DNA of 24,000 bases from Thermotomaculum hydrothermale (GTDB taxonomy: Bacteria > Acidobacteriota > Holophagae > Thermotomaculales > Thermotomaculaceae), in the NCBI RefSeq assembly GCF_016592575.1, contig NZ_AP017470.1, positions 991,471 through 1,015,470 on the forward strand. The letters run 5' to 3'. The notes beneath the pieces are model-generated. The model did no database searches. It worked only from the letters and a program-made list of their open reading frames with translations, and had not been told where the DNA came from. Below are positions 9 through 21,826 of the stretch, one piece after another. Both the position numbers and the translations under genes were made by a program. How positions within the stretch are numbered: the first letter of the stretch is position 1; every line of letters starts with the position of its first letter.

Positions 9-1358
9 ATGAAGGGATTCATCAAGTTAATTTTAATATTTTCAATAACAACAATAGTTAATTTGCATGCAATTGCACAACAAAATTTAAAACCTATTGA
101 AAAAATGACTCTGGATAAAGCAATAAAAATTGCACTTGAAAACTCACCTTATTTAAAGGCTGTTGAGCATGAGAAAAACGCAGCTAAAACTTATGAAAAA
201 GAGGCAAAGAGTTACAGGCTTCCTCAGGTAAATTTAAACGAGATTGTAATGAGAACCAACAATCCAATGGAAACATTTGCACTTTCACTTTCCCAGGAAA
301 ACTTTAACTTAATGGATTTAATGGTAAATGACCCCAACCACCCTTCTCCACTTAACGATTCAATTACCCAGCTTCAAATAGTGCAACCCCTCTATATGGG
401 CGGAAAAATAACTCACGGGATTAAAGCAGGCCAGAAAATGGCAAAGGCAGGGGAAAAGAAGTTTGAAAGAGCAAAACAGGAAGTTATATTTAATACTAAA
501 ACAGCATATTTAAATGTTTTACTTGCAAAAAAGTATGTTGAGTTAATGGACGAAGTTGTTAAAACAGTGAAAACCCATGTTGACATGGCTCAGGCTTACT
601 ATGACACCGGCTTTATTATGGAAGCGGACTTATTGCAGGCAAAGGTATTTTTAGGCGATGTTGAACAAAAGAAGATAACAGCAGAAAACAATTACAAACT
701 TGCAAAGGCATACTTCAATAATGTTATTGGCGTTGACCAGAATAAAGATTTTGAATTTGTTAATCAATTTAAATTTGAGGATAAAGAATACAATCTTGAT
801 AAATTGCTAACAGAGGCGATTGAAAATAGACCAGATTATAAAGAGTTAAAATTAAAGGTTGATGCTGCAAAGCACAATATTAGTATTGAAAAAAGTGAAT
901 ACAAACCTAAATTATTTCTAATTGGAGAATTGAATTACCATGATAAACAGTTTTTAGGAACTGATGGAGATTCGTTTAAGATTATGGCTGTTGCTAAATT
1001 TAATCTTTTTAATGGCTTCAAAACAAAAAACAGGGTGCTAAGGGCTAAAGAGCAGTATAATTCCTATTCCAAATACTTAAAACAAATGGAAGAGGGAATT
1101 TATTTGCAGGTTAAACAGGCTTACTTTAATTTAAATGAAGCCAAAAAAAGGTACAAAGTTGCAGAGTTATCTGAAAAGCAGGCAAAGGAAAACTTAAAGT
1201 TAAGGGAAGAAAGGTACAAAAAGGGAGTGGAAAAGACAACTGACCTGCTTGATGCAGACACCCAGTATATTCAGGCTAAAACCCAGAAACTGCACGCATT
1301 GTTTGATTACTTAAAAGCAGAAGAAAAACTAAAATTTATGATAGGAAAAATAAATTAA
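9..1358 (+). CDS. TolC-family outer membrane efflux protein (OMF)
   Basis: 449-aa ORF with an N-terminal signal peptide (ITTIVNLHA/IAQQ). Long helical, coiled-coil-rich sequence in two halves, as in OEP/TolC proteins. It is the first gene of a tightly spaced OMF-adaptor-RND set. Confidence 0.85.
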   Translation: MKGFIKLILIFSITTIVNLHAIAQQNLKPIEKMTLDKAIKIALENSPYLKAVEHEKNAAKTYEKEAKSYRLPQVNLNEIVMRTNNPMETFALSLSQENFNLMDLMVNDPNHPSPLNDSITQLQIVQPLYMGGKITHGIKAGQKMAKAGEKKFERAKQEVIFNTKTAYLNVLLAKKYVELMDEVVKTVKTHVDMAQAYYDTGFIMEADLLQAKVFLGDVEQKKITAENNYKLAKAYFNNVIGVDQNKDFEFVNQFKFEDKEYNLDKLLTEAIENRPDYKELKLKVDAAKHNISIEKSEYKPKLFLIGELNYHDKQFLGTDGDSFKIMAVAKFNLFNGFKTKNRVLRAKEQYNSYSKYLKQMEEGIYLQVKQAYFNLNEAKKRYKVAELSEKQAKENLKLREERYKKGVEKTTDLLDADTQYIQAKTQKLHALFDYLKAEEKLKFMIGKIN

Positions 1359-1368
1359 GGAGGATTAG

Positions 1369-2424
1369 ATGAAAAAGGTACTGCTGTTTAGCATATTTGC
1401 TTTAATATTAGTTTCATGCTCTAAAAACGATGTGGGAGAGTTAAAACAACTACCGCCAGTTAAAACTAAATTTACAAAAGTGGAAAAGGTTGTTACCTCT
1501 GAATTAGTTGAAGCACCAGGACAGGTAACATCTATCAAAGACGCTTATATTATGGCAAAATCTATTGGAACAATTCTCAACATTCAGGTTAAGGCAGGGG
1601 ATTTTGTTAAAAAAGGCCAATCACTTTTAACCATAGACTCATCAGACATAAAATCTAAATTACAACAGGCAAAGGGAGCTCTTGCCCAGGCTGAAGCTGC
1701 ATTAACAATTGCAAAAAACAATTACGAGAGGTTTAAGGAGCTTTACAAAAGAAACGCCTGCTCAAAGGTTGAGTTGGAGCAAATGGAATTTCAGTACAAT
1801 AAGGCAAAAGGCGCAGTTGAAATGGCAAAAGGTGCTGTAAACGAAGCAAAGGCTTATTTAAAATACTCAAAGGTTGTTTCCCCTTTCGATGCTATTGTTG
1901 TTGAAAGAATGGTAAATATAGGTGACTTTGCTGCACCAGGAAGGCCTTTATTGAGAATTATTGACCCAAAGGATCTGAGGTTTGAATGCACAATAGGTGA
2001 ATCAGATGCAAAATACATTAAAAAAGGCGATAAAGTCAGTGTAAAACTTGACTCATTACCTGAAAAGATTGAAGGTGAAGTTGCTGAGATTTCTGGTGGT
2101 TCAGATTTCTTAACCCACACTGTTACTGTTAGAATTGCTATCCCATTTGATGAAAGGCTTAAAGCCGGTATGTACGGAGTTGCATACTTTAATTCAACAC
2201 CAAAACAGAGAATTTTTGTCCCTGAAAAATGTATTTTAAAAAGAGGCGAGTTAAATATTGTTTATGTTGTTGATAAAAACAATATAGCAAAACTAACCCT
2301 GGTTAGATTAGGCAAAAAATTCGGTGATAAGTTTGAGGTATTGTCAGGCCTAAAAGGTGATGAAACTGTAGCGTGTTCAAACCTTTCCAGAATCTCTGAC
2401 GGAGTGAAACTGGAGGAGATGTAA
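1369..2424 (+). CDS. RND efflux periplasmic adaptor (HlyD/AcrA-type membrane fusion lipoprotein)
   Basis: The ATG lies 10 nt after the OMF stop, behind AAGGAGG. Lipobox LILVSC (Cys17). A coiled-coil hairpin segment (LQQAKGALAQAEAALTIAKNNYERFKELYK) is flanked by beta-rich segments typical of adaptors. Confidence 0.85.
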   Translation: MKKVLLFSIFALILVSCSKNDVGELKQLPPVKTKFTKVEKVVTSELVEAPGQVTSIKDAYIMAKSIGTILNIQVKAGDFVKKGQSLLTIDSSDIKSKLQQAKGALAQAEAALTIAKNNYERFKELYKRNACSKVELEQMEFQYNKAKGAVEMAKGAVNEAKAYLKYSKVVSPFDAIVVERMVNIGDFAAPGRPLLRIIDPKDLRFECTIGESDAKYIKKGDKVSVKLDSLPEKIEGEVAEISGGSDFLTHTVTVRIAIPFDERLKAGMYGVAYFNSTPKQRIFVPEKCILKRGELNIVYVVDKNNIAKLTLVRLGKKFGDKFEVLSGLKGDETVACSNLSRISDGVKLEEM

Positions 2425-2425
2425 A

Positions 2426-5400
2426 ATGGAAAAAAAACATAAATTCGGGCTTTCAGGCTCTATAGCAAGGTACTTTATAGATTCAAAACTAACTCCCTTG
2501 ATTATTATAATCTCTCTTTTAATGGGAATTTTTGCCGTCTTAATTACACCAAGGGAGGAAGAACCTCAAATTGTTGTTCCAATGATTGATGTAATGGTAA
2601 TGTACCCCGGGGCATCTGCCAAACAGGTTGAAACAAAGGTTACAATACCAGTTGAAAATTTAATGTGGGAAATCCCAGGAGTTGAGTATGTTTATTCTAC
2701 TTCAGCACCAAATTTCTCACTCACAACAGTTAGATTTTATGTTGGAGAAGATGCTGAAAGGTCACTTGTAAAAGTTCTGCAAAAGCTTCAGTCTAACTAT
2801 GACAAAATTCCACCTGGTATTTCATTTCCTCTTGTAAGGGAGTTTTCTATTGATGATGTTCCACAGGTTGCGTTAACCCTTTATTCAGATAAATACGACC
2901 ATTACCAATTAAGAAGGCTTGCCACAGAAGTTGCAGAAAAGATAAAAAGAATTAAGGATGTTTCCAGAATTGATATTATAGGGGGAACCCCCAGAACATT
3001 CAGGGTAATTCTTGACCCTGTAAAAATGAAGGTAAAAAATATTTCCCCATTGCAAATTGCTGATATGTTAATGAAAAGGCACTGGAATTTACCTGCCGGA
3101 GAAATTCAGACAGATAATAAATCCTTTGTTGTGGAAACTGGATATTTTATCCAGAAAATAGAGGACTTAGAAAACTTAGTTGTTGGCGTTTATATGGGAA
3201 AACCTGTATTCCTTAAAGATGTTGCAAAAATTGTTGATGGGCCAAAGGAAATTGACAACTATGTTTTCTTTGGCGTTGGGCCAAGTGCTGAAAAAAGGGA
3301 TATAGATAAGTATAATAAATACCTCTACCCTGCTGTAACAATTTCAATTGCTAAACGAAAAGGAAGTAATTCAGTTGTTATAGCACATGAAGTAAAAAAG
3401 ATGGTTAAAGAATTAAAGGGGTATATTATTCCTAAAGATGTGCATGTTGCCGTCACAAGGGATTACGGAGAAACTGCCCAGGATAAATCAAACGAGTTAA
3501 TTGAGCATGTAATTATTGCAACTGTTGCTGTTGCTATATTTATGGGTTTTGCATTAGGTATAAAAGAGGCAATTGTTGTTTTAATTGCAGTACCTGTTAC
3601 CTTAGCATTAACTTTGTTTGCATCCTACTTCTTTGGATATACCTTAAACAGGGTGTCTCTTTTTGCTTTAATCTTTGCGATTGGAATCCTTGTTGACGAT
3701 GCTATTGTTGTTGTGGAAAACATCCACAGGCACTTTGTAATCAATAGAGGTAAAGGTAACTTAAAAGAAATTGCGGCATTTGCTGTTGACGAGGTGGGAA
3801 ACCCTACAATTCTTGCAACATTTACAGTAATTGCAGCACTACTACCTCTTGCATTTGTAACAGGAATGATGGGGCCTTATATGAGGCCTATTCCTATAAA
3901 TGCTTCTGCTGCAATGCTTTTTTCACTTTTAGTTGCATTTATAGTTTCCCCCTGGCTTGCTTACAGGCTGCTTAAAGGAGAAAAATTTAGCGAGGATGAG
4001 GTTAAAGAAGAGACTGGTGGGAAACTATATAGCTATTATAAAAAATTTATGTACTTATTAGTAGACGATGGGAAAAAGGCTTTCTTCTTTATCATGTTTG
4101 TTGTGTTTTTATTGTCAGGCTCTATTTACCTTTTTCTTGCAAAAAAGACAATTGTTAAAATGCTCCCCTATGACAACAAGGCTGAACTTCAGATAATAAT
4201 TGATATGCCGGAAGGCACCACTCTGGAAAATACCACAACAGTTGCAAGGGAAATAGGGGATTATTTAAGAACTGTTCCTGAAGTATCAGACTTTGAGATT
4301 TATGCAGGAACTGCTGCCCCCTTTAACTTCAATGGGCTCGTAAGACATTACTTTTTAAGAAGAGGGGAAAATGTAGCAGATATTCAGGTTAATTTCGTAA
4401 ACAAACATAAAAGAAAGAAAAAATCCCATGATTTAGCTAAAGAGATAAGAGGTCCAGTTCAAAAAATTGCAAAAAAATATGGAGCAAATGTAAAGATAAC
4501 TGAAATTCCACCGGGACCTCCTGTGCTTTCAACACTTTTGGCAGAAATTTATGGACCAGATTACAACAAACAGATTGAGATAGCAAGAAAGATTAAAAAA
4601 ATTTTTGAAGAAACAGATGGAGTTGTTGATGTTGACTGGTATGTTCAGGACCCGCAGGTAAAATATGAACTTGTGCCTGACCCGGTAAAAGCAGCATACA
4701 ATGGAATTACTGTGGAACAGATTGCTAAAACCCTTGCATTGGTTCAGTATGGGATGGATTTAGGATTGGCTGATGTTCCAAGGGAAATGGAAAATGTTTG
4801 TATAAATGTCAGATTGCCAAGGAAAGACAGGACTTCAATTAAAGACCTAACAGATATTTATGTTCATGCTAAAGACGGCAGAATGGTTCCTTTATCTGAA
4901 CTTGTAAAAGTTAAAAAGACTGTTGCAGATACCTGGATTTACCATAAAAACCTAATGCCTGTTGTCTATGTCACAGGCGAGGTTTCAGGAAAGGAAGAAT
5001 CTCCTGTTTACGCAATACTAAAAATGAAGAAAAAAATAGAAAAACTTGATATAGGAACTGGTTACAAACTGAACCAAAGATTTACCGACTTACCGTTTGT
5101 GGACAAAAAGTATGAAATGAAATGGGATGGAGAATGGCACATAACCTATGAGGTATTCAGGGATATGGGAATAGCCTTTGCAGCGGTTATGGTACTTATA
5201 TACATCCTTGTTGTGGGATGGTTTAGATCATTTATAACGCCATTAATCATTATGTCCCCTATTCCTTTAACCCTTGTGGGAATTGTGCCAGGCCACTGGA
5301 TAACTGGCAAATTTTTCACCGCAACTTCAATGATAGGTTTTATTGCACTTGCTGGAATTATTGTAAGAAACTCTATACTTCTTATTGATTTTACTGAATT

Positions 5401-5671
5401 AAGGCTTGAACATGGAGAACCTTTAAGAGAGGCTGTTGTTGACGCTGGAGTGGTAAGGTTCAGGCCTATTGTTTTAACTGCTATGGCACTTGTTGTGGAT
5501 GCTCTTGTAATCATTATGGATCCAATTTTTGAAGGGCTGGCTATCTCTCTTATGTTTGGAGTTATTGTATCTACAATTTTAACCCTATTTGTAATACCTG
5601 TTTTATACTATTACACTTCAAAGGTTATTCCTTTGAAAAAATTTGAAGAGGAGGATTCATATGACAGTTAA
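2426..5671 (+). CDS. RND efflux pump inner-membrane permease (AcrB/CzcA superfamily)
   Basis: 1081-aa ORF starting one nt after the adaptor stop. Two large soluble loops alternate with clusters of hydrophobic helices. Conserved TM4-type motif FAIGILVDDAIVVVENI. The substrate class cannot be told from sequence alone. Confidence 0.9.
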   Translation: MEKKHKFGLSGSIARYFIDSKLTPLIIIISLLMGIFAVLITPREEEPQIVVPMIDVMVMYPGASAKQVETKVTIPVENLMWEIPGVEYVYSTSAPNFSLTTVRFYVGEDAERSLVKVLQKLQSNYDKIPPGISFPLVREFSIDDVPQVALTLYSDKYDHYQLRRLATEVAEKIKRIKDVSRIDIIGGTPRTFRVILDPVKMKVKNISPLQIADMLMKRHWNLPAGEIQTDNKSFVVETGYFIQKIEDLENLVVGVYMGKPVFLKDVAKIVDGPKEIDNYVFFGVGPSAEKRDIDKYNKYLYPAVTISIAKRKGSNSVVIAHEVKKMVKELKGYIIPKDVHVAVTRDYGETAQDKSNELIEHVIIATVAVAIFMGFALGIKEAIVVLIAVPVTLALTLFASYFFGYTLNRVSLFALIFAIGILVDDAIVVVENIHRHFVINRGKGNLKEIAAFAVDEVGNPTILATFTVIAALLPLAFVTGMMGPYMRPIPINASAAMLFSLLVAFIVSPWLAYRLLKGEKFSEDEVKEETGGKLYSYYKKFMYLLVDDGKKAFFFIMFVVFLLSGSIYLFLAKKTIVKMLPYDNKAELQIIIDMPEGTTLENTTTVAREIGDYLRTVPEVSDFEIYAGTAAPFNFNGLVRHYFLRRGENVADIQVNFVNKHKRKKKSHDLAKEIRGPVQKIAKKYGANVKITEIPPGPPVLSTLLAEIYGPDYNKQIEIARKIKKIFEETDGVVDVDWYVQDPQVKYELVPDPVKAAYNGITVEQIAKTLALVQYGMDLGLADVPREMENVCINVRLPRKDRTSIKDLTDIYVHAKDGRMVPLSELVKVKKTVADTWIYHKNLMPVVYVTGEVSGKEESPVYAILKMKKKIEKLDIGTGYKLNQRFTDLPFVDKKYEMKWDGEWHITYEVFRDMGIAFAAVMVLIYILVVGWFRSFITPLIIMSPIPLTLVGIVPGHWITGKFFTATSMIGFIALAGIIVRNSILLIDFTELRLEHGEPLREAVVDAGVVRFRPIVLTAMALVVDALVIIMDPIFEGLAISLMFGVIVSTILTLFVIPVLYYYTSKVIPLKKFEEEDSYDS

Positions 5672-7211: not shown

Positions 7212-8216
7212 TTATTCGCTTATTTCTCCTGAAATATTTTTTAAAAAAAGCTTTTTTATCTCAGAAACATTATAATCTTTTGACAACAGGTACTGAAATT
7301 TCATTATTGCTGATTCAATAGTCATATCAAGGGCAGAAATTGCTCCTGCCTCTTTTGCTTTTCTACCACATTCGTACGCATCAAGGTTTATCTTCCCTCT
7401 CTTTGCCTGAGAGGTAATTATAACCGGAATACCTAATTCATTTGCCTCAATGATAAACGGTATAAGAGAATTTTCCAGAATGGGAATATTGCCTGTTGCA
7501 TATGCTTCGACAATTATTCCATCTGTATCATTGTTTAAAAAATGCCTGTAAATTGACGGATTTAATCCAGGAAAAGTCTTTATATGGACAATATTTTTTT
7601 CTTTTAGAAAATTGAACTCTATTTCTCCACCAAAAGATATAGGCATTATACAACGGTTGTTTAAATTAATTTCAACTCCAACAGTTGCAAGGTAAGGAAA
7701 ATTAGGGGAATCAAAGGCGTCAAAATCTCCACTTGAAACCTTTGTTGCCCTGTTTGCCCTCATCAACTTTGAATTAAAGCATATAGCAACCTCAGGAATA
7801 TCCATTGTGGCAAACTCCACCGCATTTATGAGGTTTAACCTTGCATCTGTTCTAATGTGTCTTAAAGGCTTCTGAGAGCCTGTTAAAATAATTGGCTTTT
7901 TGTTGTTCTTTATCAAAAAAGAAAGAGCAGAGCCAGAGTAAGCCATTGCATCTGTTCCGTGAATAATTACAAAACCATCATAAAGTTCGTAATTTTCTTT
8001 TATGACTTCAACAAGTTTGTTTATGTGTTTAATTGTTAAATTGGCACTATCAATGTTAAATGCAAAAACAGTTTCAATATCAGCAAGCTGATTTAACTCA
8101 GGGACAAAATTTACCACACTTTCCTGAAATTGAACAGGTTTCAAGCTATTATCTGGTTTACCTTCAGCCATTCCCAATGTGCCGCCTGTGTGTATCATTA
8201 AAATCTTTTTACTCAT
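7212..8216 (-). CDS. ansA: L-asparaginase, type I (cytoplasmic AnsA-like)
   Basis: 334 aa from the ATG at 8216, which sits behind GAGGTG. The track start at 8243 adds 9 unlikely residues. Catalytic-site motifs IHTGGTLGM and IIHGTDAM. Confidence 0.8.
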   Translation of the reverse strand: MSKKILMIHTGGTLGMAEGKPDNSLKPVQFQESVVNFVPELNQLADIETVFAFNIDSANLTIKHINKLVEVIKENYELYDGFVIIHGTDAMAYSGSALSFLIKNNKKPIILTGSQKPLRHIRTDARLNLINAVEFATMDIPEVAICFNSKLMRANRATKVSSGDFDAFDSPNFPYLATVGVEINLNNRCIMPISFGGEIEFNFLKEKNIVHIKTFPGLNPSIYRHFLNNDTDGIIVEAYATGNIPILENSLIPFIIEANELGIPVIITSQAKRGKINLDAYECGRKAKEAGAISALDMTIESAIMKFQYLLSKDYNVSEIKKLFLKNISGEISE

Positions 8217-9835: not shown

Positions 9836-10303
9836 TTAATCTCTTCTAATTATCAGTATTCTTGGGTATGATTTAAAGTGTTTAATTCTCACCCCAACGT
9901 AAACATACGCATCTTTAAACTTCCAGTAATAGTGTACTACTGTAAAGTTAGGGTGGCTAATAGTTCTTGAAATTGGAATGCCGTAAAGCTTTGTTAAACA
10001 ACCTTTAAGTTTGAAAATAAAATCCCTTGCCTTTTGAGGGTCTTTTTTGTATCCAAACCATATATCAATTGCCTTTATTTTATCCCCTTTGAAAATAGGG
10101 GAAACGCTTGCAAACTCATCGCAAAATTTAACGGTAAAAGAATCACCTGAATGAAGGTATAGTCCATTTTTCTTTGCAGTACTTATAAACTCTTTTATAT
10201 TCATACCTGGTTTAAGCCCGAAAAAGCCAGGAAAAGGTTTTGACGAACAACTATTTAAAATTAAAACCGCAAATAATAATGATAAAAATAATAATTTCTT
10301 CAT
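9836..10303 (-). CDS. Hypothetical lipoprotein
   Basis: 155 aa with signal peptide and lipobox LILNSC. I recognise no family motif. Its stop overlaps the hslU RBS. Confidence 0.6.
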   Translation of the reverse strand: MKKLLFLSLLFAVLILNSCSSKPFPGFFGLKPGMNIKEFISTAKKNGLYLHSGDSFTVKFCDEFASVSPIFKGDKIKAIDIWFGYKKDPQKARDFIFKLKGCLTKLYGIPISRTISHPNFTVVHYYWKFKDAYVYVGVRIKHFKSYPRILIIRRD

Positions 10304-14625: not shown

Positions 14626-14654
14626 AATATAGCAAAATAAAGGCATTCAGTCAA
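14626..14654 (-). promoter_or_regulatory. Candidate sigma70-type promoter of the lepA operon
   Basis: On the minus strand: TTGACT, 17 nt, TATATT, about 30 nt upstream of the lepA GTG and only 21 nt downstream of the preceding stop codon. Confidence 0.4.
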
Positions 14655-14674: not shown

Positions 14675-17371
14675 TTACCTTCTAATCTTTCTCCTTAATG
14701 AGACAATTAATTGATAGGCAAGGTAAGAAACTGCAATTGAACCTATTGCGTATGCTGTTTTATACCCTGGAATGTGGTTTGCATTTTCAGAATTGGCAAT
14801 GGTTCTCCACGGCACAAAGAGTTTTGCAAATGAAGAAAAGAAGAAATCAAGGCCTGTAAAGAAAGTTTTAATAAAATGCTCAGTTGAAAAAGTCTGAAAA
14901 ATGCCAAAAATATAAATAACACATAAAGACAATAATAGATAAATCAAAAATTCAAGAAGTCTCCACCATTTTTTAAAATTAACAAGAGATAATGCAAAGA
15001 AGCACACCAGAAGAAACGGTAATAAAGTCCATAGAATGAAATAATAGTCTATTTTATTTAAGAAAAATAATTGAGTAAATTCATACAAACGCAAATATAG
15101 CTTGTCTTTATCGAGTAAATTAAAGAATGAAACATACATGGCAAAAAACAAAATCCACTTTAAAGGCCTAAACCAGTTTTGTGCAAAGTTTGAAGAAAGT
15201 TTTGATATACCAAAAATAAGTTTGTCTTCAAGTGAAGTTGATAAGAAATTTTTTAGGATAAAATAACTTTTATAAAAAAATCTCTTTAGAATACTTAAAT
15301 TTTGTTCGGCTAAATTTGAATTTCCATAATTTAAGTATCTCTCATAAGCCCTCATTTCAAGGGCATAAAAGTCTCCTCCGTGAATAAAGTCTTTTTGTTT
15401 ATCGTGAGCAAGTTTTAACTGCCTGTAAATATCCTGAGCCCTATCAGGCTCTTTTTCAAATAAATCCTTGCAAATCCTTTTCTCACTTACCTCTCCCCAC
15501 TTTGTATTTATAAATTCGGCATCTGAAATTGAACTATCTATAATATTGATTTCTTTTGCATTTGAAAAATCACAGTTTATAAAACGCATCTTGTTTAGGA
15601 TTGAATTGTTTATTTCAAAATATAACTCTTTATCTCCCTTAAAGTTAAGGTTAAAAATAACAAATTCTTTTGCATGGTTTGTTAAATTATTAAGTTTTAA
15701 AATTCCTATATTTATATTTTTCAATTCAATTTGTGCATTAGATGAAAATTGAGGATTAAAAATTTCAAGATGGTTAATTGATTTACCCTGAGAATCTATA
15801 ACAAATTTTGATTTTATTTCAACTGATTTGAAAATAATTGGATTGTTAAAATAAACTCCCCCAAAATCTGCATCTCCTTGAAATGTTGCTACCAAAAAAT
15901 CTGCATCTCCTTGAAATGTTGCTCCCAAAAAATTTGCATATTTTTGAAATGTTGCTCTCCAAAAATTTGCATATTTTTGAAATGTTGCTCTCCTAAAATT
16001 TGCATCTCCTTGAAATGTTGCTACAAAAAAATCTGTCTTTCCTTGAAATGTTGCTCTTTCAAAATCTGCTTCTCCTTGAAATGTTGCTCCCCAAAAATTT
16101 GCATACACTTGAAATGTTGCTCCCCAAAAATTTGCATATTTTTGAAATGTTGCTTCCCTAAAATTTGCATCTCCTTGAAATGTTGCTACCAAAAAATCTG
16201 CCTCTCCTTGAAATGTTGCTCCCCAAAAATTTGCATATTTTTGAAATGTTGCTCCCCAAAAATTTGCATATTTTTGAAATGTTGCTTCCCTAAAATTTGC
16301 ATCTCCTTGAAATGTTGCTTCCCTAAAATTTGCATCTCCTTGAAATGTTGCTCTTTCAAAATCTGCATCTCCTTGAAATGTTGCTCCCCAAAAATTTGCA
16401 TACACTTGAAATGTTGCTCCCCAAAAATTTGCATATTTTTGAAATGTTGCTTCCCTAAAATTTGCATCTCCTTGAAATGTTGCTACCAAAAAATCTGCAT
16501 CTCCTTGAAATGTTGCTCCCCAAAAATTTGCATACACTTGAAATGTTGCTCCCCTAAAATATGCATCTCCTTGAAATGTTGCATCCCCAAAATATACCTC
16601 TCCTTGAAATGTTGCGTGCATAAAATTTGCCTCTCCTCTAAATGTTGCATCCCCAAAATATGCCTCTCCTCTAAATGTTACATCCCCAAAATATGCCCAT
16701 CCTCTATATGTTGCATTCCGAAAATATGCCTCTCCTAGAAATGTTGCATCCCCAAAATTTAAATGCTTAATAAATTTACACTCTTCGCCTTCATACCAAA
16801 AATTAAAATCTTTTTTTAAAAAATTGTTTTCATCTCTAATATCATCATCAAATTCACTAAACTCAGGAAAAATTACCCACTTAAAATCATAATAATCTTT
16901 TTCCTCACTTTTATTTAGCAACTCTCTGTAATAATTAACCAGAGCTGTATCATAACTGACATTTTTCTCTATTTTTTCAGGGATTTCTTTTTCAGGGTAA
17001 TCAACTGCAAATCTGTAAGCCCTTATTCTTTTCCAGAATTCATTAATTAGGTTTTCTCTCCATTTTATAGAGAATTCTATATAAAATTCTTTTTTTTCTT
17101 TTCTGGCTTTTTCACGCTTCTCTTTCCATTCTTTGTACTCATCAATATTTTCTATCCAGATTTCGTTTTCTTTTTCGCAGTGGAAAATGCATGTTGTAAA
17201 TTTCTTTAGTTCATCTTTTGAAAGTGATTCAAGGGTTTCGTCATCTTTGAGGAATACAGCAATCGGCTCAATTACATTTCTATTTATTTCTTTACAAACC
17301 TCGCACTCATGGCTTTCAAGGCCTAAATCTCTTGCCTTTTCTTTGGTTAAATACTCTACCCTATAGCCCAT
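14675..17371 (-). CDS. Large membrane-anchored beta-solenoid-like repeat protein: N-terminal Cys/His module, 27 x 11-residue pentapeptide-like repeats, C-terminal multi-TM domain. Function unknown.
   Basis: Uninterrupted 898-aa ORF with AAGGA 6 nt before the ATG. aa 1-208 are soluble, with C23xxC26 and C61xxH64C65. aa 209-505 are 27 units of ATFxGxAxFxx. aa 506-625 are degenerate Asn/Ile-rich repeats. aa ~733-891 hold four to five hydrophobic helices ending in RRKIRR. Confidence 0.85.
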   Translation of the reverse strand: MGYRVEYLTKEKARDLGLESHECEVCKEINRNVIEPIAVFLKDDETLESLSKDELKKFTTCIFHCEKENEIWIENIDEYKEWKEKREKARKEKKEFYIEFSIKWRENLINEFWKRIRAYRFAVDYPEKEIPEKIEKNVSYDTALVNYYRELLNKSEEKDYYDFKWVIFPEFSEFDDDIRDENNFLKKDFNFWYEGEECKFIKHLNFGDATFLGEAYFRNATYRGWAYFGDVTFRGEAYFGDATFRGEANFMHATFQGEVYFGDATFQGDAYFRGATFQVYANFWGATFQGDADFLVATFQGDANFREATFQKYANFWGATFQVYANFWGATFQGDADFERATFQGDANFREATFQGDANFREATFQKYANFWGATFQKYANFWGATFQGEADFLVATFQGDANFREATFQKYANFWGATFQVYANFWGATFQGEADFERATFQGKTDFFVATFQGDANFRRATFQKYANFWRATFQKYANFLGATFQGDADFLVATFQGDADFGGVYFNNPIIFKSVEIKSKFVIDSQGKSINHLEIFNPQFSSNAQIELKNINIGILKLNNLTNHAKEFVIFNLNFKGDKELYFEINNSILNKMRFINCDFSNAKEINIIDSSISDAEFINTKWGEVSEKRICKDLFEKEPDRAQDIYRQLKLAHDKQKDFIHGGDFYALEMRAYERYLNYGNSNLAEQNLSILKRFFYKSYFILKNFLSTSLEDKLIFGISKLSSNFAQNWFRPLKWILFFAMYVSFFNLLDKDKLYLRLYEFTQLFFLNKIDYYFILWTLLPFLLVCFFALSLVNFKKWWRLLEFLIYLLLSLCVIYIFGIFQTFSTEHFIKTFFTGLDFFFSSFAKLFVPWRTIANSENANHIPGYKTAYAIGSIAVSYLAYQLIVSLRRKIRR
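15857..16747 (-). repeat. 33-bp in-frame tandem repeat array (27 units) with a 297-bp higher-order duplication
   Basis: The 12-mer TTGAAATGTTGC recurs 23 times at exactly 33-nt spacing (15878 to 16604). Many whole 33-mers are identical. Units 16220-16516 and 15923-16219 align with 15 mismatches over 297 nt by hand. Confidence 0.95.
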
Positions 17372-17394
17372 TATAAATCCTTTTGTTTTTTCAA

Positions 17395-17423
17395 ATTATA
17401 TCAATAAGTTAGCATTGTGTAAA
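17395..17423 (-). promoter_or_regulatory. Candidate sigma70-type promoter of the repeat-protein gene
   Basis: On the minus strand: TTTACA, 17 nt, TATAAT, with the -10 ending 23 nt upstream of the ATG at 17371. Confidence 0.4.
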
Positions 17424-17499: not shown

Positions 17500-18717
17500 C
17501 TATTCATACCTTAATGCGTCGATTGGGTTGAGTTTTGCGGCTTTGTATGCAGGGAAAACCCCGAATATTACCCCAACAAGTGAGGAAAAGATAAATGCAA
17601 GTAGTATCCCCCAGAATGGCACATACATTCCTGGGAAGTTGGGAATCATTTTTGATATTAGAAAGCCGAGGCCTAACCCTATTAGAATGCCTATTATTCC
17701 ACCGACAAGGCTTAAAATTACAGATTCAACAAGAAATTGGTAAAGGATATGCTTCTTTGTTGCCCCCACAGCCTTCCTTACCCCTATCTCTTTTGTTCTT
17801 TCGGTTACAGAGACAAGCATAATGTTCATAATGCCTATTCCACCAACAATAAGGGATATTCCAACAATCCCTGCAACAATTAAGGTTATTATTGAGGTTG
17901 TCTTTTTGAAGCTTTCAAGTATGTCCTGCTGTGTTTGAACCTTAAAATCGTCTGCCTTGCCCTCTTTGATTTTGTGCCTTTTCCTTAAAATCTTTTCAAT
18001 TACCTCTTTTACCTGATTTATTTTTTCAAGGTTTTTAATTGTTAATTGAATGTATATGTGGTCTTTTAAGTTTTTGCCTTTTATGTCAATTACTGTGCTA
18101 AACGGCATAAATACATAATCGTCCATGCTTCTGCCGAAAAATGAGCCTTTCTTTTCCATTACTCCAATTATTTTTACAGGAACATTGTCTATTAAGATAA
18201 ACTTGCCAATAGGGTTTTCCCCTAATTTCAGGCTGTCAACAACCTCTTTCCCAAGCACGCAAACCTTTCTTCTATGCTTTAAGTCAAGGTAATTTATAAA
18301 CCTTCCTGTTTCAACATACTGGCCGTTAATGTCCTGATATAGGGGATAAACGCCGTAGAGGCTTGATGAATGGCTTAATTTTTTGGAACTTGCATTGCAG
18401 GAAGCAAACACTATGGGGGCAAGGTTTTCAATATCATCAATTTGCTTTTTTAAAACAAGTGCATCTTCCATTGTAAGTTTCGGGGGTTCTTTTAACAGCT
18501 CAATAAAGTTTGTTGTGGCGCGGTAAGGCTGAATTGTAATAATGTTTGTTCCCATCTGCTCCTGCTGAACCTGAATTGTGTTAAATATGCCCTGCACAAG
18601 GGAAATAATTGTTATGACAGAAGCAACTCCTATTATTATCCCCAAAGTTGTTAGAAAACTTCTTAATTTATTGGCTTTAATTGAGCGAAGGGCAAGCTTT
18701 ATGTTTTCTATAATCAA
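17500..18717 (-). CDS. MacB/FtsX-type ABC transporter permease (type VII, with periplasmic core domain)
   Basis: 405 aa. One N-terminal TM helix, a ~230-aa periplasmic domain, then three C-terminal TM helices. FtsX-family loop ERTKEIGVRKAVGA. 4-nt overlap (ATGA) with the ATPase gene. Confidence 0.9.
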   Translation of the reverse strand: MIIENIKLALRSIKANKLRSFLTTLGIIIGVASVITIISLVQGIFNTIQVQQEQMGTNIITIQPYRATTNFIELLKEPPKLTMEDALVLKKQIDDIENLAPIVFASCNASSKKLSHSSSLYGVYPLYQDINGQYVETGRFINYLDLKHRRKVCVLGKEVVDSLKLGENPIGKFILIDNVPVKIIGVMEKKGSFFGRSMDDYVFMPFSTVIDIKGKNLKDHIYIQLTIKNLEKINQVKEVIEKILRKRHKIKEGKADDFKVQTQQDILESFKKTTSIITLIVAGIVGISLIVGGIGIMNIMLVSVTERTKEIGVRKAVGATKKHILYQFLVESVILSLVGGIIGILIGLGLGFLISKMIPNFPGMYVPFWGILLAFIFSSLVGVIFGVFPAYKAAKLNPIDALRYE

Positions 18718-19403
18718 TTTTTATACTCCTTAATTATCTTTCCGTCTTTAAGTACTATTGTCCTTTCAGTTTCTTTCCCTATTTCAGTTTCGTGGGTAAC
18801 TAAAACAATTGTTTTCCCCTCTTCGTGAATCTTATGAAATAAATTGAGAATTTCTTCCGTGGTTTTTGAATCAAGGTTTCCTGTCGGCTCGTCAGCAAGG
18901 ATAATTGAGGGCTCGTTAACAAGTGCCCTTGCAATTGCAACCCTTTGCCTCTGCCCACCAGACAATTGATTTGGTTTATGCTTCATTCTGTCTGCAATAC
19001 CCATTTTATCAAGGTAGTATTCAACTATTTCTTTTCTCCTTTTTTTAGGGATTCCAGCATAGATTAAAGGGGTTTCAACATTTTCAAATGCAGTCAGGCC
19101 TTTTATAAGGTTGAATGTCTGAAAAACAAAGCCTATCTCTTTGTTTCTTATTTTAGATGCCTGAATATCATCTAAAAAAGAGACATCTTTCCCCTTTAAA
19201 AAGTATTTTCCTTCAGTTGGAGAATCAAGGATACCGATTATATTCATTAAGGTTGACTTTCCTGAACCGCTTGCCCCCATTATTCCTAAAAATTCCCCCT
19301 CTTTAATATTGAGGCTTATTCCGTCAACAGCCCTTAATTCCGTTTCACCCATTTTATAAAGCTTCTTAATTTTCTCTAATTTTATCAGTATGTTATCACT
19401 CAT
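18714..19403 (-). CDS. ABC transporter ATP-binding protein (MacB/LolD-like)
   Basis: 229 aa. Walker A GASGSGKST, signature LSGGQRQR, Walker B ILADEPTGNLD, H-loop VTHE. Confidence 0.95.
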   Translation of the reverse strand: MSDNILIKLEKIKKLYKMGETELRAVDGISLNIKEGEFLGIMGASGSGKSTLMNIIGILDSPTEGKYFLKGKDVSFLDDIQASKIRNKEIGFVFQTFNLIKGLTAFENVETPLIYAGIPKKRRKEIVEYYLDKMGIADRMKHKPNQLSGGQRQRVAIARALVNEPSIILADEPTGNLDSKTTEEILNLFHKIHEEGKTIVLVTHETEIGKETERTIVLKDGKIIKEYKN

Positions 19404-20535
19404 TTTTAAAGTTAATCTTATCTCCGTTTTTAAGGGTTTTCAAGACTCTATAAGGGCCTGTAACAACTGTATCGTTTTCGCTTAATCCTTCCTTTACTTC
19501 AACATAAAAATCGTTTGATATGCCTGTTTTAATATATGTTTTTTTCGCTATTTTGTTTTTAACTTTAAAACAGTACTCTTTGCCGCTTTCCTCTTTTCTT
19601 ACCGCCTCAATAGGTATAATTAATGCATTTTTGCTCTCTCTTACCTTAATCTCAGCCCTGCCGCTCATTCCTGGTTTTATTTTTGGATTTATCTCCTCAA
19701 AATCAATTTTAACCTTAAAAAGGGATACATCCCTGCCAGCAGGTTTTTCTGCTGATTCAGATATCTGCTTCACAATACCCTTGAAAACTTTGTTATCAAA
19801 AGCGTCAAGGTGGATATCCGCTTCCATCCCTTTTTTTAATAGGACAGAATCAACCTCGTTTACATCAACTTCAAGCTCAAGCTTATTCATATCGCTTAAA
19901 ACCATAATTATTGAGCCCGGATTGTTTATTGTCCCCTGGATTACCTGCTCTCCAACCTCTTTTCTAAGGCTCGTTACCTTTCCGTCTATTGGCGCAACAA
20001 TCTTTGTTTTTGAAAGGTTTTCTAAAGCCTTTGCAAGGTTTGCGTTTGCCTGCTTAATGTAAAATTCCTGCTGGGATACATTCAACTTCTTTGACTCAAA
20101 TTGATTTTTTGCATTTTCAAATTCTTCTTTTGATAGTATCCCGGATTTAAAAAGCTTTAATTTTCTTTTAAAATCCTTTTCACTCTGTTTTAAATCTATC
20201 TTTAACTGCTCCAAAACAAGCTTCTGCTTTTTTAATTCTGCTTTAAGTCTTGAAACTTCGCTTTTATAGTTTTTGTCGTCTATTCTGCAGAGTAAATCTC
20301 CTTTTTTAACAAAATCCCCTTCCTTTACTGGAAGTTCAACAATTTTGCCCATTATTTCAGACATTACTGTAACTGTTTTGACAGGCTTAACAGTTCCTGT
20401 CCCTGAAATTGTTTCTGAAATATCCTTTTTCTCAACCTTTTTAACCTTAACAAATTTTCCGTTGTCTCTATTTTTTAGCACTCCTGCAATTACAAAAAGA
20501 ATTATAACTCCAGCAATAATTAGATACTTTTTCAT
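19396..20535 (-). CDS. Periplasmic adaptor (HlyD/MacA-type membrane fusion protein)
   Basis: 379 aa. N-terminal TM anchor, long coiled-coil (SEVSRLKAELKKQKLVLEQLKIDLKQSEKDFKRKLKLF), C-terminal beta-barrel segments. 8-nt overlap with the ATPase gene. Confidence 0.85.
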   Translation of the reverse strand: MKKYLIIAGVIILFVIAGVLKNRDNGKFVKVKKVEKKDISETISGTGTVKPVKTVTVMSEIMGKIVELPVKEGDFVKKGDLLCRIDDKNYKSEVSRLKAELKKQKLVLEQLKIDLKQSEKDFKRKLKLFKSGILSKEEFENAKNQFESKKLNVSQQEFYIKQANANLAKALENLSKTKIVAPIDGKVTSLRKEVGEQVIQGTINNPGSIIMVLSDMNKLELEVDVNEVDSVLLKKGMEADIHLDAFDNKVFKGIVKQISESAEKPAGRDVSLFKVKIDFEEINPKIKPGMSGRAEIKVRESKNALIIPIEAVRKEESGKEYCFKVKNKIAKKTYIKTGISNDFYVEVKEGLSENDTVVTGPYRVLKTLKNGDKINFKNE

Positions 20536-21297: not shown

Positions 21298-21624
21298 TTA
21301 ACCTAAAGCAAAAATAATTGCCCCGACAAATCCCCTTAGAAAAATTGCTATACCTATAAGAAATAAGGGGTCAACCATCCCTTTACAACAAAAAGAAAGA
21401 ACTGCCAATATTCCAATTAAACAATGAAAAGCGTACATATTGGCCTTTGCATAAAGCATTCTTTCCCTTTCATCCCCTGCCTTTTTCACAAAAACATGAA
21501 GTGCAATCAAAGAGAAAAAAGCAAATCCTGCAAGCCCAAATAAACTCATAAAAATTAACATTAAAGACCCCGCCACAATGTCAATGTAATTGTGAGCTTC
21601 AACCTGGTTAAATATTTTCTTCAT
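21298..21624 (-). CDS. Small 4-TM membrane protein coupled to the XRE regulator (DUF2178-like?)
   Basis: 108 aa from the ATG at 21624, which sits behind GAGGAGG. The track start at 21660 is unlikely. Four hydrophobic segments. Overlaps the XRE gene by 17 nt. Family name is uncertain. Confidence 0.55.
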   Translation of the reverse strand: MKKIFNQVEAHNYIDIVAGSLMLIFMSLFGLAGFAFFSLIALHVFVKKAGDERERMLYAKANMYAFHCLIGILAVLSFCCKGMVDPLFLIGIAIFLRGFVGAIIFALG

Positions 21625-21826
21625 TATTTTCCTCCTCAAGAGTAAAAATTTCTTCAACATTTACACCGAAAACCTTTGCCATTTTCAAGGCAATTACCAC
21701 TGAAGGCACATACTTGCCTTTTTCAATTGAATTGATAGTCTGCCTTGAAACACCAACTTTTTTTGCTAAATCTTCCTGGGTTAAATCGTACATAGCACGA
21801 AAAACCTTGATTTTGTTTTTCAGCAT
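21608..21826 (-). CDS. XRE-family helix-turn-helix transcriptional regulator (YozG-like short form)
   Basis: 72 aa. Canonical HTH_3 core LTQEDLAKKVGVSRQTINSIEKGKYVPSVVIALKMAKVFGVNVEEIF. Confidence 0.9.
   Translation of the reverse strand: MLKNKIKVFRAMYDLTQEDLAKKVGVSRQTINSIEKGKYVPSVVIALKMAKVFGVNVEEIFTLEEENNEENI

Follow-up and report, generated by a model that had tools for sequence, protein, structure and literature searches.

How does a long and regular pentapeptide-type solenoid come to be part of a membrane protein, and what might such a protein do in a bacterial cell? The question is raised by TTHT_0956, a gene of the thermophilic acidobacterium Thermotomaculum hydrothermale located on the minus strand at 14675..17371 of a 24,000-nucleotide (nt) stretch of its genome (contig NZ_AP017470.1, positions 991,471 to 1,015,470; hereafter the window, whose own numbering is used throughout). 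An earlier note, made from the DNA sequence alone, had described here a single 2697-nt open reading frame (ORF) for a protein of 898 amino acids (aa), and this description stands: the frame is intact, opening with an ATG and coding for 898 aa and a stop, with 0 frameshifts and 0 internal stops. By sequence identity the product is BBB32509.1 / WP_201328860.1, for which public annotation offers only the labels 'hypothetical' or 'pentapeptide repeat-containing protein'. The start codon is supported by homologs, which share the first residues MGY/WRV.YL. We find that TTHT_0956 stands alone as an intact gene, that it codes for an inner-membrane protein predicted to lie mostly in the cytoplasm, and that its product is a member of a large uncharacterized family sharing its architecture.

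The protein family and its architecture

When a profile built on aa 590-898 was run with full HMMER over 1.84 billion cluster representatives, 2,347 clusters scored at E<=1e-3; of these, 913 came out at E<=1e-10 and 65 at E<=1e-30. The TTHT_0956 product matches the family profile with an E-value of 1.3e-80 and displays all the family motifs, except for V-P-W in place of N-P-F. The architecture, for which the earlier note named no characterized counterpart, is no one-off in view of the 2,347 clusters, and the gene had already been annotated publicly. A word-indexed search of 5.8 billion proteins, in which the C-terminal part drew 4 relatives and the N-terminal part 15, had suggested extreme rarity; that search is of limited sensitivity, and the profile search overturns the impression. 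Among the best 150 members, the helical hairpin described below is present in 146, and 143 reach the end of the module model, with the protein terminating at that very point in 142; at least three K/R residues occur within the last eight positions in 143 of these 150.

In the shared C-terminal part, a W-G rung closes the solenoid, and a hairpin with the consensus R-(D/E)-x-x-R-Q-L-K ... D-x-Q-x-N-x-I-x-A-N-x-F-Y-x-x-E-M comes next. An S-N-(F/H)-x-Q-x-W motif precedes the first membrane helix, and the insert beyond it varies from zero to about four helices; an N-P-F motif and a last helix carrying Y-(Q/H) complete the series, with R-R-x-x-(K/R)-R behind that helix. The smallest members have two membrane helices only. 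At the other end, the motif C-x2-C ... C-(I/V)-(F/L)-H-C-(E)-K-(D/E)-x-W is found in 64 of the 150 best members and in 79 of 113 further ones. Pentapeptide families are the only Pfam domains detected anywhere in the family, whose proteins range from about 400 to 1,060 aa with solenoids of widely varying length. The closest relatives come from thermophiles (Aquificales, Desulfurobacterium, Aquifex, Thermotogota), with others in many Aliarcobacter and Arcobacter species and in metagenome-assembled Deltaproteobacteria, Delongbacteria, and Deferribacterales. The family amounts to at least about 900 to 2,300 clusters spread over Acidobacteriota, Aquificota, Thermotogota, Campylobacterota, Deferribacterales, and other lineages, with a patchy phyletic distribution. 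Relatives are frequently situated at contig ends, probably due to the repeats breaking assemblies.

The five-part anatomy read earlier from the translation is correct. The protein can be divided into a cap, a solenoid rod with regular and atypical sections, a helical hairpin, and a membrane module (Table 1), for which two AlphaFold2 models were obtained with family alignments, covering aa 1-250 and aa 480-898. The first (predicted local distance difference test score, pLDDT, 92.1; predicted template-modeling score, pTM, 0.89) shows a β-hairpin, the Cys/His region, and three long helices, with short strands alternately 5 and 6 residues apart from about aa 199. The N-terminus is hydrophilic and lacks a signal peptide, in keeping with the soluble segment that had been delineated at aa 1-208. 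Of the Cys/His set proposed earlier, C26, C61, and H64 are invariant over 70 sequences, C65 is conserved in at least 90%, and C23 is invariant in the close set, but H21 is not conserved among the homologs; in TTHT_0956 a 34-residue insert separates the two Cys/His knuckles. Zinc-ribbon Pfam models gave no match to this N-terminus, the lone match of this kind being PF24230 inside the repeats (E 0.041). The cap is probably zinc-binding.

The succeeding rod is built from the unit F-x-x-A-T-F-Q-G-(D/E)-A-(N/D/Y), repeated 27 times without interruption (= 54 faces). The earlier note had counted the same 27 units but placed them at aa 209-505, three residues beyond the register found here. At the DNA level, Tandem Repeats Finder reports a period of 33 nt with 27.3 copies, an 83% match, and a score of 1040. 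The region is matched by PF13576 (Pentapeptide_3) in 9 stretches with an E-value of 7.3e-72 (237.8 bits against a cut-off of 27), and the product, with many more than the minimum of 8 contiguous repeats, thus belongs to the pentapeptide-repeat superfamily via PF13576. The predicted strand spacing of 5 or 6 residues, modeled with pLDDT above 90, fits a four-faced 22-residue coil, and the model continues the β-solenoid with similar confidence through the Asn/Ile-rich segment that had been noted as degenerate strand-like repeats at aa 506-625. The solenoid that was originally proposed from the translation is supported by both the Pfam match and the structure prediction. The rod is acidic (net charge -12, isoelectric point 4.5), and its variable corner positions are often occupied by exposed Trp and Tyr. 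From about 18-19 coils of 4.8 Å each, its length is estimated at roughly 9 nm.

In the second model (pLDDT 81.9, pTM 0.75), the rod is followed by a helical hairpin at aa 642-682, where a helical linker had been expected (aa ~640-700), and then by eight or nine helices at lower confidence. Over 124 sequences, K, Y, E, M, and L of the hairpin are invariant. By hydropathy, the membrane-spanning helices fall at approximately 734-751, 776-798, 803-826, and 870-892, and aa 833-851 are a candidate for an amphipathic or re-entrant segment; this agrees with the hydrophobic helices ending in RRKIRR that had been read from the translation. Relative to the family, the TTHT_0956 module combines two core helices with two extra inserted ones. 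Its basic elements are the short loop NFKKWWR and the tail RRKIRR, and the topology proposed earlier, with four membrane helices and both ends cytoplasmic, is consistent with how hydropathy and charge are distributed. Metal sites built from cysteines are typically found in the cytoplasm; given the hydrophilic N-terminus without a signal peptide, the candidate cysteine metal sites, and the both-ends-in topology, we infer that the whole rod is cytoplasmic.

The claim that the protein has no characterized counterpart held up in every resource consulted. Neither terminal module has a model match in Pfam or NCBIfam: Pfam has no match in aa 503-898 and none to an ion-channel family, and NCBIfam returned only a sub-threshold PipB2 match inside the repeats (22.5 bits against a cut-off of 354) and no Qnr match. 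PADLOC-DB 2.0 gave 0 families at E<=1, and PHROGs gave weak matches inside the repeats only. Against the sequences of the PDB, profiles of both terminal modules found nothing below E 0.17, and phmmer with the repeat region found no chain at E<=0.01. Foldseek searches of the PDB with both models likewise returned nothing below E 0.4, with SV2A and AlbG heading the C-terminal list (E 0.4-1.3), and the N-terminal model had no significant match in a viral model library. Literature searches brought up no paper on the family. Two of the three modules accordingly have no Pfam/NCBIfam model and no solved or recognizably similar structure.

Few pentapeptide-repeat proteins have a known function, the characterized ones being soluble gyrase protectors, secreted effectors, and a toxin receptor domain. 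With the first of these (Qnr, MfpA, AlbG, McbG) the TTHT_0956 product shares, by prediction, a right-handed β-solenoid of tandem short repeats, with inward Phe/Leu and a small residue at i-2, and an acidic, cytoplasmic rod. However, the members of that group are small and soluble, about 180-220 aa long, dimerize through a C-terminal helix, and have strict 5-residue repeats (PF00805), whereas the TTHT_0956 product has 898 aa, four predicted membrane helices, and faces that alternate between 5 and 6 residues (the 11-residue unit of PF13576); its Cys/His cap, its conserved hairpin, and its membrane module set it further apart. The kinship that had been drawn from the A-x-F logic of the repeats stands at most at the level of the predicted fold and not of the sequence: PF00805 only just comes up to its threshold (24.5 bits, no stretch passing alone), AlbG is matched in Foldseek at a non-significant E 0.84, and phmmer found no PDB chain. 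Differing in sequence, size, and solubility alike, the product is not a member of the Qnr/MfpA/AlbG/McbG group.

Among membrane-associated cases, a 2021 review of pentapeptide-repeat proteins lists only HglK and SV2 (PMC8145042). HglK of Anabaena, a membrane pentapeptide-repeat protein that affects heterocyst glycolipid deposition and septal junctions (PMC8145042), similarly joins pentapeptide repeats and four predicted membrane helices in one polypeptide. It differs, by its description, in the reversed order of these elements (N-terminal helices, C-terminal repeats) and in its canonical AXLXX repeats, and no Cys/His cap or hairpin is described for it. The luminal domain of SV2A/B/C is also a solenoid on a membrane protein and serves as a protein-binding surface (the botulinum neurotoxin A receptor); SV2A is the top, albeit non-significant, Foldseek match (E 0.4). 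SV2 is nevertheless eukaryotic, its solenoid has four and a half coils and faces the vesicle lumen, and its membrane domain is an unrelated 12-helix one of the major facilitator superfamily. A β-helical domain tethered by transmembrane helices is further seen in the envelope-stress proteins of the Toastrack/PspC and HAAS-pentapeptide types (bioRxiv 10.1101/2020.09.24.301986), but these systems occur in operons with PadR-like or Psp/Lia partners while the TTHT_0956 family has no conserved partner, and HAAS (DUF1700), Toastrack, and PspC have no Pfam match in the TTHT_0956 product. Finally, a combination of variable repeats with a constant module and within-species diversification is shared with bacterial NACHT/STAND immune sensors, some of which have pentapeptide-repeat sensors (PMC7159879). 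Unlike these, the TTHT_0956 product has no NTPase or other enzymatic domain and no PADLOC match, and the family is not found in defense islands.

Some relatives deserve separate mention. On one contig (L019) a run of nine A's at 7384-7392 ends the frame of the N-terminal domain (…ELKKK, then a stop), and eight A's would continue it into …ELKKNKDLILFN…FIFPEF…; either phase variation or a sequencing error in the homopolymer is at work. Three proteins from separate contigs (P0005, P0011, P0014) share the identical truncated ending, the DNA having been read only for the contig of P0014, namely L019. We therefore rejected the short 'stand-alone N-terminal domain' proteins as frameshift truncations. 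In the metagenomic P0010 (L020 360-953), the N-terminal Cys/His domain is joined to a CorA-type Y-G-M-N-F plus membrane tail (PF01544); the contig has a coverage of 1.76x and may be a chimera, and we set this fusion aside as evidence for a channel. Another metagenomic relative, P0002, starts with the residues MCIRDR, the string usually obtained when the remnant of a sequencing adaptor is translated; the N-terminus of P0002 is probably artefactual.

Variation of the solenoid in Aliarcobacter butzleri and neighborhoods of the relatives

Three strains of Aliarcobacter butzleri were compared (family genes at L003 8001-9365, L017 5001-6248, and L018 5001-6257), and in all three the gene occupies one fixed locus in the order DJ-1, family gene, ABM or RhuM, DNA_alkylation. 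Between strains, the proteins encoded on either side share 95-100% identity and the downstream ABM protein 99%, but the family protein reaches only 58-61%. This divergence is confined to the solenoid (approximately aa 35-270), where the three-way protein identity is 0-20%, whereas the three proteins all keep the knuckle core CILHCEKD and agree at 80-100% over their last ~190 residues. The DNA mirrors this, with an identity of 96-100% that drops abruptly to 25-55% at the gene start and recovers through the hairpin region. Such a sharp divergence between near-identical flanks excludes drift in situ and points to replacement or to long-term maintenance of divergent cassettes. More than 20 distinct 90%-identity clusters from A. 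butzleri are present among the homolog matches listed. A pattern of this type is usual for specificity determinants under diversifying selection, and with the solenoid hypervariable between strains while the ends remain constant, we interpret the solenoid as the specificity element. A constant module and a conserved cap motif with a solenoid swapped cassette-like between them at a fixed locus also provide a testable handle on the family.

The A. butzleri spot is a small variable region inside otherwise conserved synteny. The gene following the family gene differs too, being a RhuM-family gene in one strain (L003 9457-10293) and an ABM monooxygenase gene in the other two (e.g., L017 6337-6657). 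Across the Arcobacteraceae, the family gene is seen in two contexts. In the first (A. butzleri, A. aquimarinus, A. skirrowii), the order is Methyltransf_16, (DJ-1), family gene, (ABM or RhuM), DNA_alkylation, tRNA_edit; in the second (A. suis, Malaciobacter molluscorum, and a metagenome-assembled Aliarcobacter), it is secD-secF, family gene, ..., DUF6394, leuS, lptE. A functional link to DNA_alkylation repair was considered and rejected, the association being limited to the Arcobacteraceae. In two genomes with the second context (L012 6634-7164 and L015 9547-10035), the next gene downstream codes for the membrane module only, without solenoid or hairpin. These stand-alone versions match the module profile in hmmsearch with E-values of 1e-14 (L012) and 4e-18 (L015), retain S-N-x-x-x-W ... 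N-P-F ... Y-K-L, and may be partners of the full-length protein in a hetero-oligomer.

No partner gene is conserved across the relatives in about 15 neighborhoods examined; hence, the protein probably acts alone. In the thermophiles the neighbors are mostly housekeeping genes, such as trpC and those for a release factor and a polyamine synthase. Occasional neighbors of the relatives include Fic, ResIII, and a transposase (L001), HicAB and RhuM (L003), a KAP NTPase (L017), HepT/MntA (L009), TnpB (L010, IS605), and a DDE transposase.

A possible recognition role and the rival readings

The constancy of the ends and the variability of the rod lead us to favor, tentatively, a reading of the membrane module as a constant platform that presents a variable recognition rod on the cytoplasmic side of the membrane. 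The partner would most plausibly be an invader protein, and the outcome its sequestration or exclusion, or a signal to the module. Under this proposal, the hairpin and membrane module would hold the rod at the membrane face, and the solenoid would bind a partner that itself varies, most likely a phage or mobile-element protein arriving at the membrane. Binding might simply sequester the partner, as a decoy or a means of exclusion, or it might be relayed through the hairpin to the module, eliciting an abortive, membrane-perturbing response. The hairpin and module would probably also have an activity of their own in the membrane, whether through oligomerization, through a paired partner, or through ion leakage. 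That the module is more than an anchor is suggested by its conserved polar motifs (S-N-x-x-Q-x-W, N-P-F, Y-Q), the invariant hairpin, and the stand-alone paralog. Likewise, a recognition element is favored over a ruler because the solenoid is hypervariable within one species, the membrane module is constant, and the module has a stand-alone paralog. Also on the side of the proposal are the mobile or toxin-antitoxin genes found now and then in the neighborhoods, the lack of a conserved partner gene, and the acidic rod with its exposed Trp and Tyr.

The broader proposition, that the family represents a widespread but unrecognized class of single-gene immunity or exclusion systems, wherein a hypervariable solenoid at the membrane face would recognize invader proteins while the hairpin and module execute a response or block entry, appears unlikely to us. 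If true, it would introduce a new type of sensor along with a new membrane effector; if the role is not an immune one, the family still defines two domains that are new, along with a solenoid fold put to use on a membrane anchor.

Several observations weigh against a role in recognizing invaders. TTHT_0956 is flanked on both sides by housekeeping operons (MacAB-like ABC efflux and lepA), and the Arcobacteraceae genes occupy two syntenic core-genome positions rather than mobile defense islands. Neither the 50,697 phage records nor the 72,556 plasmid records searched contain the C-terminal module, the plasmid matches to an Arcobacter member lying mainly over the repeat region, and the empty PADLOC-DB search falls on the same side. 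The hypervariability was seen in relatives only about 25% identical to the TTHT_0956 product and not in Thermotomaculum, where the solenoid array is very regular; such regularity looks more like repeats that expanded recently than like a binding surface that has been sculpted. Confidence in the model is, moreover, only moderate over its membrane part (pLDDT 56-87).

Much of this would sit comfortably with a housekeeping scaffold or adaptor at the cytoplasmic membrane face, whose rod would recruit or space an envelope, secretion, or division partner, a role of the kind put forward for the cyanobacterial HglK, and whose variation would reflect weak constraint. The syntenic core positions beside secDF or detoxification genes, the housekeeping operons around TTHT_0956, the absence from the phages, plasmids, and defense models searched, and the widely varying solenoid lengths together with the very uniform repeats of TTHT_0956 can all be read in this way. 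Yet neutral drift cannot yield a protein identity of ~0-20% with a sharp boundary between 95-100% identical flanks within a species. The want of a conserved partner gene, the patchy distribution, and the AT-richness relative to the flanks (27-30% against 37-39% GC) also argue against an old core function, and we consider a scaffold somewhat unlikely. It is improbable, in our view, that the protein is a membrane-tethered DNA mimic that binds a topoisomerase or another DNA enzyme, either protecting it from a poison or sequestering it at the membrane. A pentapeptide-type solenoid with an acidic rod would suit such a role, as would the detoxification-type neighbors in the Arcobacteraceae, i.e., DNA_alkylation repair (PF08713), ABM monooxygenase, and DJ-1/PfpI, but the repair gene is not a neighbor outside that lineage. 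The protein has no significant sequence or fold likeness to the topoisomerase protectors, which have no counterpart of the membrane module and Cys/His cap, and a conserved target such as gyrase would leave the hypervariable solenoid unexplained.

The earlier note had also raised a channel-like membrane module, which would make the protein a solenoid-regulated ion channel or transporter of physiological role, with the module as the pore and the hairpin as its gate. The conserved polar motifs in and around the membrane helices, the strictly conserved hairpin, the stand-alone module paralog, and the joining of the N-terminal domain to a CorA-type GMN tail in P0010 are compatible with this. Nevertheless, no ion-channel family was matched in Pfam and no channel or transporter family by sequence or fold against the PDB, no more than two membrane helices are present in minimal members, the model is of moderate confidence in its membrane part, and P0010 comes from a possibly chimeric contig of 1.76x coverage; we hold this reading to be quite improbable. 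Lastly, near-identical 33-nt units and the frequent truncation of relatives in assemblies might betray a decaying or artefactual ORF produced by runaway repeat expansion without function. This is extremely improbable for an intact 2,697-nt frame with a ribosome-binding site and a promoter-like site, which keeps the family-wide motifs and both conserved terminal domains, these being confidently folded in prediction, and the truncations of the relatives fall at contig ends or in a homopolymer run. The significance of TTHT_0956 lies in the size of its uncharacterized family, in two domains lacking recognizable relatives, and in the cassette-like variation of the solenoid at a fixed locus, by which a recognition role can be tested directly.

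Sequence signals and genomic setting of TTHT_0956

The features of the gene are collected in Table 1.

Table 1. Features of TTHT_0956 and its flanks, in window coordinates, with the basis for each.
Feature	Position	Strand	Basis or remark
σ70-like site TTTACA-17-TATAAT with TG extension	17395..17423	-	11/12 consensus matches; top site of the region
Shine-Dalgarno-like AAGGA	17378..17382	-	6 nt 5' of the ATG; read from the sequence
N-terminal cap domain, aa 1-198	16778..17371	-	predicted β-hairpin, Cys/His knuckle, three long helices
Candidate metal-binding C23-x2-C26 ... C61-x2-H64-C65	17177..17305	-	conservation in homologs
27 Pentapeptide_3-type 11-residue units, aa 206-502	15866..16756	-	Pfam, Tandem Repeats Finder, AlphaFold2 strands every 5 or 6 residues (pLDDT above 90)
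Atypical Asn/Ile-rich β-solenoid continuation, aa 503-622	15506..15865	-	AlphaFold2 strands (pLDDT above 90); ends in the conserved W-G rung
Conserved helical hairpin R-D-x-Y-R-Q-L-K ... D-x-Q-K-D-x-I ... F-Y-A-L-E-M, aa 635-682	15326..15469	-	pLDDT above 90 and conservation
Two amphipathic helices, aa 694-731, and S-N-F-x-Q-x-W motif leading into the first membrane helix	15173..15292	-	conservation, AlphaFold2, hydropathy
Membrane module, aa 734-898, with tail Y-Q-x5-RRKIRR	14678..15172	-	hydropathy, charge, AlphaFold2 helices (pLDDT 56-87)
lepA promoter-like site TTGACT-17-TATATT	14626..14654	-	10/12 consensus matches; ~20 nt past the TTHT_0956 stop; marks the 3' boundary of the gene

The promoter that had been assigned to the gene is indeed present as a site, but sites of this kind are no more frequent here than in shuffled sequence (13 matches across the region against 13.2 expected), and both promoter-like sites are therefore to be read as consensus matches only. 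The accompanying observation, that a lepA promoter-like site lies just past the stop without an intervening terminator, agrees with our scan, which found no terminator-like site between the two. The parts of TTHT_0956 outside the repeats (14678-15865 and 16757-17371) have a GC content of 27-30%; lepA and the MacB-like gene stand at 37-39%, and the window as a whole at 35%. Either a bias of the protein toward Asn, Ile, Lys, and Phe or a foreign origin of the gene could underlie the difference. Aquificota and Thermotogota hold the closest relatives. Within the gene, an antisense ORF at 15878-16738 (+) of 286 aa (KCCSPKICI...) and a 93-aa ORF in another frame at 16186-16467 (-) were rejected as genes, being by-products of the 33-nt periodicity.

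Upstream, the gene is separated by a gap of 128 nt from a MacAB-like HlyD-ABC-FtsX operon at 17500-20535 (-), and downstream it is followed by lepA, a YceG family gene (PF02618), and a U32 peptidase gene. The rest of the window codes for an RND efflux operon, Maf, an asparaginase, an AAA+ ATPase (best Pfam matches AAA_2 and ClpB_D2-small), and ATP synthase subunits, with 0 tRNA genes and 0 Rfam matches in the window. Pfam offers no match at E<=1e-3 for two ORFs, at 9836-10303 (-) of 155 aa and at 21298-21660 (-) of 120 aa, the former of which is situated directly 5' of the AAA+ ATPase gene. Apart from the MacAB-like operon, the window thus carries a second efflux system, namely the OEP-HlyD-AcrB (RND) operon at 9-5671 (+).

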